In this document: positions 3,360-21,899 of the stretch, piece by piece | Position numbering within the stretch: the first letter of the stretch is position 1 | Layout of the letters: each line of letters begins with the position of its first letter | Notes under the pieces: generated by a model | Seen by the model: the letters and a program-made list of their open reading frames with translations, nothing else | The model's database searches: none | Told to the model about the DNA's origin: nothing | Translations under genes and position numbers: made by a program | Assembly: GCA_051657225.1 (NCBI GenBank) | Contig: JBOFKH010000255.1 | Coordinates: 1-34,120, forward strand | DNA: 34,120 nucleotides | Reading direction: 5' to 3' | Source of the DNA: Alphaproteobacteria bacterium | GTDB lineage: Bacteria > Pseudomonadota > Alphaproteobacteria > Holosporales > JBOFFI01

Positions 3360-3508
3360 AATAGACCTCTTTCGAAACTTCCTTTTATGGGCCGATGGGT
3401 GCGTCACTCCGGTGCTCAGATCCTCATGTACCCTAAGTACACTCCGGTCTTGCGCTCCGTTAGTTCCGCCCCTCAGTTCCCTAAAAGTGGTTTCGAAAGA
3501 GGTCTATT
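3360..3508 (+). mobile_element. MITE-like palindromic repeat element, copy A (~149 bp)
   Basis: Perfect 19-bp terminal inverted repeats: AATAGACCTCTTTCGAAAC at 3360-3378 and GTTTCGAAAGAGGTCTATT at 3490-3508. The whole element recurs reverse-complemented at 18797-18959. No ORF of its own. Confidence 0.8.
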
Positions 3509-15900: not shown

Positions 15901-17640
15901 ATGACACGTGCCAATGCACATCCTGAGATAAACGATGAAGATTTTGAAAAACTTTTGGAAGATTCTCTCAAACAACGTGATATTATTGAGGGGAATGTTC
16001 TGAAAGGACGAATCGTCGCCATTGAAAATGACGAAGTCTTGATTGACGTAGGCCTAAAATCTGAGGGACGCGTTCCCCTGAAGGAATTTTCAATCTCAGG
16101 TCAAGAAGCCCAACTGAAGGTAGGCGATGAAGTTGAAGTTTACCTGGAAAAGGTCGAAGACAAAAACGGTCAAGCCCTTCTAAGCCGTGAAAAGGCTAAG
16201 CGTGAAGCTGTTTGGCAGCAACTGGAGGCTTGCTCGAAAGACAACCAATATGTCGAAGGCACGATTACCCATCGTGTTAAAGGTGGATTTACGGTTGACC
16301 TTGGGGGAGCCATTGCCTTCTTGCCTGGCAGCCAGGTTGATATTCGTCCTATCAAAGATGCAAACCCATTGATTGGTGTTACACAGCCTTTCCAAATCTT
16401 GAAGATGGATCGCGCCCGCAGCAACATTGTGGTCTCCCGTCGCAGCATTATGGAAGATTCACGGGCAGAAGCTCGCACTGAACTGGTAGCAAACCTTGAA
16501 GAAGGTCAGGTCATTGCAGGTATCGTGAAGAATATCACCGATTACGGCGCCTTCATTGATCTGGGTGGCGTTGACGGCCTCTTGCACGTTACAGACATTG
16601 CTTGGAAACGGGTGAATCACCCAAGCGACGTTTTAACAGTTGGCCAGACGGTAACTGTGAAGATCGTCCGTTTTAACCGGGAAACCCAACGAATTTCCTT
16701 AGGTCTTAAGCAACTAGATTCAGATCCGTGGGAGAAGGTCGCAGGACGTTTCCCCATTGGCTCTCGGATCAAAGGAAGGGTTACTAACGTCACAGATTAC
16801 GGTGCATTCGTAGAACTTGATGAAGGGATTGAAGGCCTGATTCACGTTTCTGAAATGGTCTGGAGCCGGAAAAACATTTCTCCAAGCAAGATAGTTTCCA
16901 CCAGTCAAGAGGTTGAAGTGATGGTGCTGGATCTTGATATGACAAAGCGGAGAATTTCTCTAGGCCTCAAGCAGTGCACAGAGAATCCTTGGAGCAAAAT
17001 CATAGAAAAATATCCGCCTGGTACTGTTTTTGAGGGTGAGATTAAAAATGTTACGGAATTTGGCCTTTTTGTTGGCATGACGGATGAAGTGGACGGCATG
17101 GTTCACCTTTCTGATCTGTCATGGGAAAAGCCAGGGGAAGAAGCCTTAGCAACCTACCAAAAAGGCGTGACCATCCAAGTGAAGGTGCTGGACATTGATG
17201 CTGAAAAAGAACGCATCAGCTTGGGCGTGAAACAACTTACAGCAGACCCTTATGAATCCAAACTAGGTGAGTTTAAAAAGGGCGCTGTGGTGACCTGTGA
17301 AGTCCTGGAGGTTTTGGAAGCCGGCATTGAAGTTTCCCTTTCTGGGGGCACGACAACAGGGTTTATCCGAAAGGGTGAGCTATCACGGGATCGGAGCGAG
17401 CAGCGTTCATCTCGTTTTGCCGTGGGAGAAAAGGTAGACGCAAAAATCATTGCGTTTGATAAAACGTCTCGCAAGGTCAACCTCTCCATCAAAGCACGGG
17501 AGATTGAGGAAGATCGTCAAGCCCTTGCAACCTATGGTTCCTCAGATAGTGGCGCCAGCTTAGGTGATATCTTAGGGGCTGCGATGAATCGCGCCCAAGA
17601 AAAAGCCCGCAGCGAAGCGGAAGATGAAGCCAAAGATTAA
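15901..17640 (+). CDS. rpsA: 30S ribosomal protein S1
   Basis: Six S1 OB-fold repeats, for example GRIVAIENDEVLIDVGLKSEGRVP and GIVKNITDYGAFIDLGGVDGLLHV. The start is set at the ATG at 15901, which follows an AGAGGA RBS. The ORF-track start at 15796 is judged a spurious upstream extension. Confidence 0.95.
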   Translation: MTRANAHPEINDEDFEKLLEDSLKQRDIIEGNVLKGRIVAIENDEVLIDVGLKSEGRVPLKEFSISGQEAQLKVGDEVEVYLEKVEDKNGQALLSREKAKREAVWQQLEACSKDNQYVEGTITHRVKGGFTVDLGGAIAFLPGSQVDIRPIKDANPLIGVTQPFQILKMDRARSNIVVSRRSIMEDSRAEARTELVANLEEGQVIAGIVKNITDYGAFIDLGGVDGLLHVTDIAWKRVNHPSDVLTVGQTVTVKIVRFNRETQRISLGLKQLDSDPWEKVAGRFPIGSRIKGRVTNVTDYGAFVELDEGIEGLIHVSEMVWSRKNISPSKIVSTSQEVEVMVLDLDMTKRRISLGLKQCTENPWSKIIEKYPPGTVFEGEIKNVTEFGLFVGMTDEVDGMVHLSDLSWEKPGEEALATYQKGVTIQVKVLDIDAEKERISLGVKQLTADPYESKLGEFKKGAVVTCEVLEVLEAGIEVSLSGGTTTGFIRKGELSRDRSEQRSSRFAVGEKVDAKIIAFDKTSRKVNLSIKAREIEEDRQALATYGSSDSGASLGDILGAAMNRAQEKARSEAEDEAKD

Positions 17641-17672
17641 GCGCTGCTTGATTTGAGTGGAGATTCGCCTGG

Positions 17673-17696
17673 AAGCCCTCTTTCATGAGAGGGCTT
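17673..17696. terminator. Hairpin between convergent rpsA and the small Cys-rich gene (possible bidirectional terminator)
   Basis: 9-bp perfect stem AAGCCCTCT / AGAGGGCTT with a TTCATG loop. There is no clear U-tract on either strand. Confidence 0.35.
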
Positions 17697-17735
17697 TGGG
17701 CGGGTGTTTCGTAAGAGGAATAGCCAAACTTCCAG

Positions 17736-18011
17736 CTATTGCTCCGTATACGTCGGCTCTGGGATGAGAGGTGGTGTTTGGCCTTTTGATTTTTCTGGGA
17801 TGAAAGGTGGCGTCCGACCTTCTGTTTTTTGACGATATGCAAGGCATTTTTCATAGCTTTTTGGAAAATGCTTGTCGCACTCAGAATAGATGCGAGAGCC
17901 TGGAAGACATGATTCTGTATAACATTGAACAATGCTTACAGCCCTTCCATCTGTTACATGACCTAAATTTAAGCATATAAAGCCTGCTGCGGCGTAAATA
18001 GAGTGCTTCAT
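17736..18011 (-). CDS. Small secreted Cys-containing protein with a Pro-rich repeat tail (hypothetical)
   Basis: 91 aa. The hydrophobic N-terminus is MKHSIYAAAGFICLNLG, and there are 4 Cys after it. The tail is KTEGRTPPFIPE / KSKGQTPPLIPE. The ATG lies 2 nt after the stop of the upstream gene (TAACCATG), and a GGAGGA RBS sits inside that gene's 3' end. Confidence 0.55.
   Translation of the reverse strand: MKHSIYAAAGFICLNLGHVTDGRAVSIVQCYTESCLPGSRIYSECDKHFPKSYEKCLAYRQKTEGRTPPFIPEKSKGQTPPLIPEPTYTEQ
17759..17830. repeat. 36-nt tandem repeat x2 (encodes the TPP[FL]IPE repeats)
   Basis: Units at 17759-17794 and 17795-17830 are identical at 29 of 36 positions by eye. Confidence 0.75.
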
Positions 18012-18013
18012 GG

Positions 18014-18688
18014 TTAGTAATCTATCCTCCGATCTGGAATGGTTCTGTAAGCTTCTGGCACGGGTTGTTCTGAAACGATTTCAGGTGAAGCTCCCATTCC
18101 ATGGATAGGAACAGTTGGTGGGGGACGCATATTGGTGTCTAAAGGTTCTAAGGGCTTTCGGTAAGGCGGAATGTTATCAGGCCCCATATTCTGAATCGGC
18201 TTTCGGTAAGGCGGAATGTTATTAGGCCCCATATTCTGAATTATGCGGGGACCAGGTGAGACGCCTTTTTCTATAATGAGGAGAGGTTTTTCTTCTAATT
18301 TTTTCTTTTCTAAGGCTCCTTCATAGGCTTTCTTGCAATTTACAACAGTATCTTTTGGGCAAGCGTCTAGACACAACCCTCCAAAGGCCTTGCTTGCAGC
18401 ACAAGCGCCTGAAGTGCAACTAAATTTGCAAAAAGTATTTTTTAATGCACCCAAGGCTTGAGTCAGCTTCACTTTATTAGTCTTGGCATGCGTATTTTGT
18501 TGATTGCAAGCAGCCAGCTTTGAAGCATCGCACTTCTCTTGACATCCTTTGTGAATGAAATCCAGTTGACACCATATCCCTTTACCACTTTCACACATTG
18601 TGTCGCAAAACGTATCTTTTGACCAAGCGCTATTTCCCAAGTGCAGCGCTAAAAGCCCCCCTACAATATAAGCGTATTTTTGGCCCAT
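18014..18688 (-). CDS. Secreted Cys-rich protein with a Pro-rich repeat C-terminus (hypothetical)
   Basis: 224 aa. The signal peptide is MGQKYAYIVGGLLALHLGNSAWS. There are 12 Cys in about 100 aa, then a KKKLEEK linker and a tandem RKPIQNMGP[DN]NIPPY repeat. An AAGGGAG RBS is present. No family recognised. Confidence 0.7.
   Translation of the reverse strand: MGQKYAYIVGGLLALHLGNSAWSKDTFCDTMCESGKGIWCQLDFIHKGCQEKCDASKLAACNQQNTHAKTNKVKLTQALGALKNTFCKFSCTSGACAASKAFGGLCLDACPKDTVVNCKKAYEGALEKKKLEEKPLLIIEKGVSPGPRIIQNMGPNNIPPYRKPIQNMGPDNIPPYRKPLEPLDTNMRPPPTVPIHGMGASPEIVSEQPVPEAYRTIPDRRIDY
18153..18242. repeat. 45-nt tandem repeat x2 (encodes IQNMGPxNIPPYRKP)
   Basis: Units at 18153-18197 and 18198-18242 differ at 2 positions. 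Confidence 0.9.
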
Positions 18689-18796
18689 GATTGTATCTCC
18701 CTTATTTTTATCGCGTTGTTTTTAAATGTTATATTTAGAATAAAAAAAACATCTTAATAAAAAACAAATCATAAAATTAAAGAGATCTTTATTTTA

Positions 18797-18959
18797 TTAG
18801 ACCTCTTTCGAAACCACTTTTAGGGAATTGAGGGGAAGGAACTAACGGAGCGCAAGACCTTCAGTCGTACTTAAGGTACATGAGGATCTGAGCACGAGAT
18901 ATAACCCTTGGTGACGCACCCATCGGCCCATAAAAGGAAGTTTCGACAAGAGGTCTATT
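18797..18959 (-). mobile_element. MITE-like palindromic repeat element, copy B (~163 bp, inverted relative to copy A)
   Basis: The termini are TAGACCTCTTTCGAAAC and GTTTCGACAAGAGGTCTATT. The interior matches the reverse complement of 3360-3508 apart from two short replaced or inserted segments. Confidence 0.8.
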
Positions 18960-19998: not shown

Positions 19999-20075
19999 TG
20001 GTAGCGGAGGAGGGATTTGAACCCCCGACCTACGGATTATGATTCCGCCGCTCTAACCAACTGAGCTACTCCGCC
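19999..20075 (-). tRNA. tRNA-Met (anticodon CAT), elongator-like, CCA encoded
   Basis: The 77-nt cloverleaf was folded by hand: GGCGGAG TA GCTC AGTTGGTTA GAGC G GCGGA ATCATAA TCCGT AGGTC GGGGG TTCAAAT CCCTC CTCCGCT A CCA. It lacks the initiator hallmarks (1:72 mismatch and three G-C pairs in the anticodon stem). A lysidine-modified tRNA-Ile2 cannot be excluded from sequence alone. Confidence 0.9.
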
Positions 20076-21020: not shown

Positions 21021-21899
21021 ATGATCTCGGTAAATTATTTTTTTTCGCTAGGATGTCTCGCTTTAACGCTTACTTCATTAGGGCACGCCGCTGAGACACC
21101 AGCAAGCCAAAGCCAACCCCTTGGAGAACAGCCCAAGGCAACGCTTTCTTTGCCAATAACCGAAGGTGTAAACAAAAATTCGGTTTTTACCCAGGAACAG
21201 CGCAAAGAGCTGGAAAATCATTTCGAAGCTTATATAAAATCTAATCCCCATGTGGTTAAGCAAGCCCTGGAAAAATTGATTACAGCTGAGGCTGCTGAAC
21301 AAGAACGCAAAGATAAAGAAATGGCAGAAACTCTCATTAAAACCCATGGAGCTGCTATCTTTAAAAACGAGGCGCTCCCAATGATAGGGAATCAGGTGGG
21401 AGAGAAAGTGTTTGCTGTTTTTGTCGACCCCTATTGTGGCTATTGCCAAGAATCCATTAAAGATTTGAAAGCATTTGTAAAAACAGATGGGCGCATCAGG
21501 GTTGTGGTGCATGATGTCGCCATTTTGGGAGAACCGTCAGAAATTGCCGTCAAAGCGCTTTTAGCGGCTAAGCTTTTGGGGAAATATGTTGAATTCCAAG
21601 AAGCCATGAAGCAGGCTAAAGCACCTTTGGACCTTCCAGGGTTGAAGAAAATTGCTAAAACCCTAGGCCTTGATGAAAAAGCCTTTGCTGAAGCGTTGGA
21701 AAAGAAAGAAGTAAAAGACTTATATAACGCCAACATGAAGCTTGTAGATGCTCTGAAATTGGATGCAACACCTACCCTCATCCATGGCCTTGAGATGATT
21801 CGTGGTTATATGCCGCTGGAAAGACTGAAGCAACGGTTAGGGTTTCCTACAGCGGAAAAAGGTGCAGAGAAATCGAGCGAAAAAGGCCAGCCCTCTTAA
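21021..21899 (+). CDS. DsbA-family periplasmic thiol:disulfide oxidoreductase
   Basis: It has a signal peptide, an N-terminal helical extension, and a thioredoxin fold with the active site CGYC (FVDPYCGYCQES). Confidence 0.85.
   Translation: MISVNYFFSLGCLALTLTSLGHAAETPASQSQPLGEQPKATLSLPITEGVNKNSVFTQEQRKELENHFEAYIKSNPHVVKQALEKLITAEAAEQERKDKEMAETLIKTHGAAIFKNEALPMIGNQVGEKVFAVFVDPYCGYCQESIKDLKAFVKTDGRIRVVVHDVAILGEPSEIAVKALLAAKLLGKYVEFQEAMKQAKAPLDLPGLKKIAKTLGLDEKAFAEALEKKEVKDLYNANMKLVDALKLDATPTLIHGLEMIRGYMPLERLKQRLGFPTAEKGAEKSSEKGQPS

Follow-up and report, generated by a model that had tools for sequence, protein, structure and literature searches.

A conserved pair of genes for small, putatively exported Cys-rich proteins with Pro-rich repeat tails in a probably intracellular alphaproteobacterium

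What do two small, neighboring Cys-rich proteins do in an alphaproteobacterium, and on which side of its envelope do they act? This question is raised by a locus in a 34,120-nt stretch of DNA from the order Holosporales (contig JBOFKH010000255.1 of assembly GCA_051657225.1), which was analyzed as a whole and is termed the window. On the minus strand, the gene of a 224-amino-acid (aa) protein (18014..18688) precedes the gene of a 91-aa protein (17736..18011). In the larger protein, a signal peptide is followed by twin six-Cys modules and then by a Pro-rich tail. The smaller comprises a signal peptide (17940-18011), a four-Cys core (17844-17924) and a Pro-rich tail. A first-pass annotation, made from the letters alone, had described these genes as a coupled pair for secreted proteins with 12 and 4 Cys, two tandem repeats and no recognizable family. 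Both open reading frames (ORFs) and the 2-nt gap between them are found in the ORF list and the sequence, the 12 Cys of the 224-aa protein are located at residues 28-118, and both repeats are recovered. The count of four Cys holds for the mature 91-aa protein, but its precursor has five. Our interpretation is tentative: a two-gene operon for small Sec-exported proteins of a host-dependent alphaproteobacterium.

The source genome (G000) is a 1.45-Mb, 93%-complete assembly, the contigs of which are cited by C-numbers. Together with three other genomes of the same genus (G001, G002 and G003), four genus genomes were compared. A further metagenome-assembled genome (MAG), JBOFDY (GCA_051647505.1, contig JBOFDY010000245.1), and a metagenomic JGI contig with the large gene were also included.

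A repeated six-Cys module

Judged by their spacing, the 12 Cys of the 224-aa protein are two copies of one definable module, C-x3-C-x4(7)-C-x8/9-C-x3-C-x7-C, which the first-pass annotation had overlooked. Module A has x7 in place of x4. Across the family, the canonical form of the module is C-x3-C-x4-C-x8/9-C-x3-C-P-x3-V-x-N-C-K-x-A-[YF]-E. The twelve-Cys domain (residues 24-125; 18314..18619, minus strand) is composed of module A (18506-18607), a helical linker and module B (18335-18430); it is delimited by a profile match over exactly this span, by the Cys spacing and by the structural model. A hidden Markov model (HMM) of the module was built from 18 module instances of 12 proteins, including module B of the ortholog P0002. 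Module B (residues 87-125) matches this HMM with 58.3 bits (E = 4e-16), a score that is partly circular because of the P0002 module. Module A alone scores 1.1 bits. Its homology is suggested by the Cys spacing and by an intermediate, module A of a 144-aa paralog (15.4 bits, E = 0.011).

Sequences with the Cys spacing were collected by a regular expression (regex) and aligned into a profile, A5, which was used for protein searches and for AlphaFold2. The AlphaFold2 model of A5 is an all-helical domain with a mean predicted local distance difference test (pLDDT) score of 82.6. In it, two successive helices bear the C1/C2 and C4/C5 pairs, which are separated by 13-14 residues. Oxidative folding of exported Cys-rich proteins is possible, since genes for a DsbA-like protein (window 21021-21899) and for DsbB (contig C60) are present in the genome. 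We infer three disulfides per module, presumably formed via DsbA/DsbB.

With 12 Cys in about 90 residues, an all-helical fold and CX3C pairs on one helix face, the domain could instead bind metal, as a periplasmic buffer or store of Cu(I), Zn or another ion that resembles Csp1, metallothionein or vanabin in concept. The 144-aa paralog matches Vanabin-2 (PF11437) at 10.4 bits (E = 0.77), and this is the only named Pfam family that surfaces, weakly, for the module family itself; the curated cut-off is 25 bits, and the paralog is not a member. Such a metal-binding role is improbable. Disulfides are favored over metal clusters because the Cys come strictly in multiples of six across the family, and an oxidizing compartment with DsbA/DsbB points the same way. 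Moreover, no significant match to metal-binding families was obtained, His and Met are not enriched, and the Cys of vanabin are themselves all disulfide-bonded.

Neither the two window proteins, three paralogs nor ten family members match a family in Pfam or NCBIfam (Pfam scans at E ≤ 1 for the window proteins and paralogs and at E ≤ 0.5 for the family members). Sub-threshold library matches to PAZ_4, Megourin, FpoI, Vanabin-2, Bacteriocin_II and Big defensin were rejected as noise. A profile search of the PDB returned only chance matches to adenylosuccinate lyase (E about 0.4). Foldseek with the domain model found 0 PDB matches (E ≤ 10) and one meaningless BFVD match (E = 8.4). In agreement with the first-pass annotation, no family was recognized, and no periplasmic housekeeping family fits.

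Three of these rejected matches bear on another interpretation, in which the proteins are antimicrobial or toxin-like Cys-stabilized peptides of the alpha-hairpinin, defensin or bacteriocin type, directed at competitors or at host organelles. Megourin (91-aa protein, E = 0.014), Bacteriocin_II (P0007, E = 0.049) and Big defensin (P0016, E = 0.18) are all far under the curated cut-offs and lie over signal peptides or Cys-rich stretches. The C-X3-C...C-X3-C arrangement does equal the plant alpha-hairpinin motif. However, no immunity or processing gene is located nearby, and an obligate intracellular bacterium has few competitors; we consider this interpretation highly improbable.

The A5 profile was searched against 1.84 billion representative proteins (E ≤ 1e-3) and recovered 13 clusters, all of hypothetical proteins. 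Most have clear signal-peptide-like N-termini; the exception without one is P0008, which is the source genome's own C93 protein. Members carry one to four or more modules and have a number of Cys that is divisible by six or at least even. The architectures include a signal peptide with one module (66 aa), with two modules and an acidic tail, with three modules, and with two modules and a Pro/Lys-rich (P0012) or Pro-rich (P0006) tail. In P0009, three modules follow a class-3 lipase (Lipase_3). A word-indexed search with a 12-sequence family alignment added only close relatives. On the evidence of these searches, the module is undescribed and founds a rare wider family.

A metagenomic locus (L027 5001-7037; ENA ERZ25039518 contig_47269) encodes a 678-aa protein with a signal peptide, a class-3 lipase and three C-terminal six-Cys modules, and this gene adjoins that of a eukaryote-type leucine-rich repeat (LRR) protein (LRR_TMOD-LMOD). 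P0006 comes from a related lineage, in which the neighboring housekeeping proteins are 71-91% identical to those of the source genome. Its contig (L026 2206-3897; JGI 3300083086) also encodes a 563-aa F-box-like/LRR protein and a 1130-aa RP005_N-domain protein near P0006. Eukaryote-like domains such as F-box-like/LRR and RP005_N are typical of intracellular bacteria.

In the six-frame translation of the whole 1.45-Mb source genome, the Cys-spacing regex matches only 4 loci: the 224-aa gene, the 144-aa signal-peptide protein (C291), a ~128-aa protein (C251) and the C-terminus of a 316-aa protein (C93). The module HMM detects eight ORFs there, five at E ≤ 2e-4 and three weaker at E 0.006-0.4. 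The five are made up of the loci matched by the regex plus another C251 ORF, for a signal-peptide protein of ~135 aa; the three, a ~175-aa protein (C167) and a paralog pair (C47/C247), were accepted on the basis of their Cys patterns and signal peptides. The source genome thus appears to carry at least 8 candidates for membership, of which four are firm. Among 22 genomes of the order, the two-module domain is present in all four genus genomes, and a single C-terminal module occurs in G006, which belongs to another family.

Several of the paralogs have features of their own. In the 221-aa ORF of C47 and its partial paralog of C247, two Cys modules flank a Gly/Ala-rich hydrophobic stretch (…GAAVGVLPGALGGLLVGGGYA…), which may be a membrane-inserting or amyloid-like segment. 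The 316-aa ORF (L004 676-1626) has a ~260-aa N-terminal domain without a Pfam match and a single C-terminal module. The ~128-aa paralog (L003, G000:C251) has a good signal peptide (…KYLFASLVFFSLNINGTVA|R) with no ATG, GTG or TTG upstream. Its ortholog in G003 starts with ATG (MLSKIKT…), and the copy in the source genome may have lost its start codon or may use a rare one.

Conservation, junction and variable tails

Comparison within the genus shows that both ORFs are real genes, linked and co-oriented. The 224-aa protein has full-length orthologs of 223, 210 and 209 aa (75-83% identity), in the genus only. The 91-aa ORF, the conservation of which was checked, is intact in the four genus genomes; two 77-aa variants (P0023 and P0024) are encoded on metagenomic contigs, and the gene is called by NCBI annotation in GCA_051650945.1. 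All Cys are invariant, and the ORFs are open in 4 (large) and 6 (small) sequences. The N-terminus of the large protein is conserved in all orthologs, including a G002 variant that lacks the Cys domain. Ratios of non-synonymous to synonymous substitution rates (dN/dS, Nei-Gojobori) lie at 0.24-0.40 in the large and at 0.16-0.70 in the small gene, and no comparison reaches 1. For the rpsA and sbtA-like genes that flank the pair, the ratios are 0.03-0.10, with dN 5-20 times lower than that of the pair. Since the ratios of the pair are below 1 but far above those of rpsA and sbtA, the pair appears to be under purifying selection and yet to evolve fast.

The stop codon of the 224-aa gene and the start codon of the 91-aa gene form the junction TAA-CC-ATG. 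In seven sequences, the variants TAA-CC-ATG, TAA-C-ATG, TAATG and ATGA were observed, and the stop-start distance ranges from -4 to +2 nt. A Shine-Dalgarno element of the small gene, GGAGGA (18025..18030, minus strand), is located 13 nt upstream, within the two Arg codons of the conserved C-terminal RRID[YW] of the large protein, and is conserved in the alignments. The large gene has its own Shine-Dalgarno element, AGGGAGA (18696..18702, minus strand), about 7-8 nt before its ATG and invariant in the four genomes. A stop and a start within a few nucleotides, a Shine-Dalgarno element inside the upstream gene and the conservation of both are the marks of a coupled operon. The translational coupling claimed by the first-pass annotation fits this junction anatomy, from which the two genes are almost certainly co-translated.

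The Pro-rich tail of the 224-aa protein (residues 135-224; 18017..18286, minus strand) is 22% Pro and contains the conserved blocks GPxNIPPY, PPPxVPIHGM and EQPVPEAYR. Tandem Repeats Finder scores a 45-nt x2.0 repeat in it (18153..18241, minus strand; 97% matches, score 171), which encodes IQNMGP[ND]NIPPYRKP. In the small gene, a 36-nt x2.0 repeat (17758..17830, minus strand; 81% matches, score 97) encodes K[TS][EK]G[RQ]TPP[FL]IPE. The small-protein repeat TPP[FL]IPE and the large-protein tail unit have a PP-aromatic core in common. Elsewhere in the genome no tail motif was found; the PP-aromatic regex, which was derived from these two proteins, matches only them. The duplicated unit GP[ND]NIPP is recognizable across genera, as GPENMP in the outgroup P0006.

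The number of repeat units differs across strains, 1 or 2 in both genes. Two copies of the 15-aa unit of the large gene are present in G000 and G001, and one copy is present in G003, JBOFDY, the JGI contig and, diverged, in G002. The 12-aa unit of the small gene occurs twice in five sequences and once in the 77-aa variants P0023 and P0024. In G002 (L008, G002:C41 1498-1806, minus strand), the product of the large gene has 102 aa: the 12-Cys domain has been lost entirely, in frame, and the Pro-rich tail immediately follows the signal peptide. The tail blocks IQDMGPDHIP, PPPPTVPIHGM and EQPVPEAYR are retained, and the downstream small gene is intact. In JBOFDY (L112 1318-1449), codon 3 of the small gene contains a single-base insertion that shifts the frame by +1, and the remainder of the gene barely differs from that of G000; a mistake in the assembly or a very recent inactivation would explain it.

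The Cys domain also differs between genomes in its synonymous divergence. Over module A and the linker (18314-18619 compared), dS is 0 between G001 and G003, for which rpsA gives 0.44. Conversely, dS is 0.63-0.77 between G000 and G001, for which rpsA gives 0.055. This disagreement with rpsA indicates allele exchange by recombination, with module A as a recombinant mosaic. Including the changes in repeat number and the domain loss, the locus is a hotspot of variation.

The domain loss in G002, the frameshift of the small gene in one MAG and the dN/dS values of up to 0.7 in some pairs are what a decaying, lineage-specific locus without current function would leave behind. However, ORFs that remain open in 4 and 6 sequences, invariant Cys and dN/dS < 1 throughout argue against decay, as do the conserved Shine-Dalgarno elements, promoter-proximal block and tail motifs, the last of which persist even across genera. 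Decay is accordingly given very little weight.

Export, place of action and surroundings

Signal peptides were assigned by inspection and by Kyte-Doolittle hydropathy (9-mer maxima). Both N-termini exhibit a short basic n-region, a hydrophobic core of 12-14 residues and small residues at -3/-1. The 224-aa protein starts with MGQK-YAYIVGGLLALHLG-NSA|WS (hydropathy maximum 2.2), and its signal-peptide codons (residues 1-21; 18626..18688, minus strand) encode MGQKYAYIVGGLLALHLGNSA|WS. The 91-aa protein starts with MKH-SIYAAAGFICLNLG-HVTDGRA|VS (maximum 2.0). By inspection, both read as Sec (type I) signal peptides, in line with the export-type N-termini described before. Of the five Cys of the 91-aa precursor, C13 belongs to the core of the signal peptide, and the other four remain in the mature protein. 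The sequence at Cys13 is G-F-[IV]-C in all six variants and does not fit the lipobox [LVI][ASTVI][GAS]C.

The organism offers a context for such proteins. The source genome encodes an ATP/ADP translocase (TLC, 585 bits; contig C137 3485-4906), and the same translocase is present in 21 of the 22 genomes of the order, all of which are 0.6-1.7 Mb in size. This translocase family marks obligate intracellular energy parasites. Its near-universal presence suggests that the whole order likely consists of such parasites, and the source organism is probably obligately intracellular. The closest rpsA outside the genus is ~67% identical.

Against this background, we lean toward proteins of the host interface, short of calling this settled. 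The 224-aa protein would consist of a cleavable signal peptide, a compact helical domain and a ~90-residue Pro-rich tail that is probably disordered. Each module would form a twin CX3C helical hairpin with a further Cys pair, and the disulfide-stapled modules would serve beyond the cytoplasm as a stable scaffold or as a domain for binding; this role is suggested by their attachment to a lipase and other domains. The tails could serve as multivalent ligands of a partner at the bacterium-host interface, and tandem gain or loss of the motif unit would tune their valency. The 91-aa protein would be translated by coupling to the first and would have a separate signal peptide, a core with four Cys and a tail with the related motif TPP[FL]IPE. 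The expansion of the family in the source genome is as would be expected for surface or secreted host-interaction proteins. We infer a location beyond the periplasm and a host partner.

Export across the inner membrane could also be the last step. In that case, the proteins would stay in the periplasm or envelope and act for the bacterium's own benefit, by analogy as structural or cross-linking proteins like OmcA/OmcB or as holdase chaperones like the small Tims. Their Pro-rich tails would then act as spacers or as contacts to the peptidoglycan or outer membrane, similar in concept to TonB/TolA. A Sec-type signal is the only export signal visible and no dedicated secretion system is identified; DsbA and DsbB are present; members elsewhere adjoin genes for ExbBD, PBP1, YkuD, RseP and an RND pump; and the twin CX3C spacing of 13-14 residues equals that of the small Tims (PMC2064014). 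All of this fits envelope residents. However, several observations make a purely envelope-resident role rather unlikely. The distribution is genus-restricted, the non-synonymous rate is 5-20 times that of the neighboring genes, the domain has been lost in one healthy-looking genome, and the copy number varies, which is unusual for core envelope components. Neither a lipobox, a transmembrane segment nor a peptidoglycan-binding domain is present. Additionally, the module is fused to a secreted-type lipase in P0009, which points to an accessory role in binding.

The host-interface reading has to be set against several observations of its own. Neither VirB4 nor the pseudopilin of a type II secretion system (T2SSG) was found in the 93%-complete genome. 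Two secretins and one T2SSE-family ATPase were found; they are unassignable to a system and could belong to pili. Thus, the genes searched reveal neither a dedicated type II nor a dedicated type IV secretion system, and no dedicated route across the outer membrane is visible. Other family members are encoded amid ordinary housekeeping genes of unrelated Gram-negative bacteria. Since G002 lacks the Cys domain and one MAG is frameshifted in the small gene, neither part seems to be indispensable. The tails match no curated eukaryotic-ligand model, and nothing in the sequence of the pair is demonstrably eukaryote-like. Furthermore, AlphaFold2 modeled the 91-aa protein too poorly to be informative (pLDDT 46.6), and this model was left out of the fold search.

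A bolder version of the host-interface reading is conceivable but doubtful. The pair would be a bipartite host-targeting device of a lineage-expanded secretome, and the module would be a new building block at the fold level. Disulfide-locked domains would survive outside the bacterium, and the tails (GPxNIPPY, RPPPTVP, TPPFIPEK) would mimic eukaryotic poly-proline ligands of SH3-, WW- or EVH1-type domains, with avidity tuned by motif number and alleles exchanged by recombination. By eye, RPPPTVP and PPFIPEK resemble what we take to be the loose SH3 patterns +xxPxxP and PxxPx+, a likeness that is not counted as evidence.

If the host-interface reading is true, an undescribed disulfide-stapled helical module would be added to the extracytoplasmic domains of bacteria, and the locus would offer an entry point to the host interactions of ATP-parasitic alphaproteobacteria in a deep-branching order that is as yet uncultured. 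It would also represent a compact natural experiment, in which domain loss, change in motif copy number and allele mosaicism occur between near-identical housekeeping flanks, and it might help to decide whether the domain or the tail is the functional part. Should the proteins turn out to be ordinary inhabitants of the periplasm, a new domain of unknown function is all that would remain.

The surroundings of the pair were also inspected. The 108 nt upstream of the large gene (18689..18796, minus strand) have 18.5% GC and are presumed to contain the promoter; the proximal ~85 nt are conserved in the four genomes. A consensus scan called no sigma-70 site on the strand of the gene pair, and a search for a shared promoter motif upstream of eight family genes returned only A/T-rich low complexity. 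The first-pass annotation had called the region A/T-rich with a very A/T-rich upstream part; the latter stands, but the coding sequences are only marginally so (43.9% GC in the 224-aa gene and 43.1% in the 91-aa gene vs 45.8% in the window). Between the small gene and the convergent rpsA, a GC-rich hairpin (AAGCCCTCT-N6-AGAGGGCTT; 17673..17696, without strand assignment) is conserved in the four genomes and is a candidate shared terminator. It has no T-run and was not called by the terminator scan. A 147-aa ORF in another frame over the small gene (17489-17932) was rejected, because its length varies in relatives (100, 79 and 150 aa) and it runs antisense into rpsA.

A copy of an element resembling a miniature inverted-repeat transposable element (MITE) is located upstream of the operon (18797..18959, without strand assignment). 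It flanks the pair on one side only, rather than bracketing it as the earlier description could suggest. The element is present at this site in G000 and G002 and absent in G001, where the promoter-proximal block remains, so it appears to be incidental to the operon, a neighbor without functional part. In G003, the sequence upstream of the pair is wholly different, and the contig ends there. The 1.45-Mb assembly contains 8 near-full-length copies (81-100% identity), namely the copy at 18797-18959, one at 3360-3508 of the window, and others on contigs C80, C47, C35 (two), C2 and C197.

Two genes and a tRNA separate the DsbA gene from the pair, one gene being on the other strand, and this order is conserved in the genus. 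The proximity of DsbA to the pair is an unproven linkage that amounts to genus synteny. Likewise, the link that had been drawn to a second gene pair at 7.7-11.5 kb comes down to conserved synteny within the genus. The tRNA gene (window 20002-20075, minus strand; Rfam RF00005, 71.4 bits) lies between the genes for the sbtA-like permease and a methyltransferase, and an Rfam scan of the window detected this one tRNA and nothing more.

Comparison with known systems

The closest structural likeness of the module is to the small Tim proteins, in which twin CX3C motifs form helical hairpins linked by two disulfides (PMC2064014). The module and the small Tims (Tim8/9/10/13) have in common two CX3C pairs, 13-14 residues apart on consecutive helices, in a small all-helical fold, and the spacing lies within the 11-16 residues between antiparallel helices that define the twin CX3C arrangement. 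Both are also associated with a compartment that has an oxidative folding system, which is the mitochondrial intermembrane space in the case of the small Tims. Compared with the small Tims, the module exhibits certain discrepancies. It has a third Cys pair and the signature C-P...V-x-N-C-K-x-A-Y-E, and its tandem copies are preceded by a bacterial signal peptide and continue into disordered tails. The zf-Tim10_DDP profile gave no match in the Pfam scans of the window proteins, paralogs and ten family members. On the basis of the model, the likeness is a resemblance, not membership.

Plant alpha-hairpinins are antimicrobial peptides or trypsin inhibitors with the arrangement C-X3-C-Xn-C-X3-C, which fold as a helix-loop-helix with two disulfides. 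The four-Cys core motif is common to them and to the module. Conversely, alpha-hairpinins are found in plants and are cut from larger precursors, and they have neither a third disulfide pair nor the CP/NC signature or a Pro-rich tail. Homology between the module and plant alpha-hairpinins was not detectable.

Among proteins of obligate intracellular bacteria, chlamydial OmcA and OmcB offer a parallel in gene arrangement: adjacent, co-transcribed genes encode exported Cys-rich envelope proteins. However, OmcA is a lipoprotein, whereas the 91-aa protein has GF[IV]C in place of a lipobox, and OmcB is a β-rich protein of 60 kDa, whereas the present domain is small and helical. No sequence match to OmcA/OmcB was observed.

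Two metal-binding families were also compared. Vanabin-2, a disulfide-rich, vanadium-binding protein of ascidians, is likewise small and helical with regularly placed Cys; the Cys spacing and the organisms differ, and the 224-aa protein does not match it in the Pfam scan. The copper storage protein Csp (DUF326), a four-helix bundle with a Cys lining, gave no Pfam match, and Foldseek against the PDB found none at E ≤ 10.

For the tails, the nearest parallels are surface proteins and effectors of intracellular bacteria, such as ActA with its FPPPP repeats and RickA and Sca2 with their Pro-rich regions. Tandem short Pro-rich motifs, a strain-variable copy number and bacteria inside eukaryotic cells are common to these systems and to the present pair. 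The motifs of the present pair, GPxNIPPY and TPPFIPE, fit no established ligand consensus of EVH1, WW or profilin. Taken together, the pair would belong to a known kind, namely secreted disulfide-rich modular proteins with disordered repeat tails, and its novelty would lie in the module and in its lineage-specific expansion.

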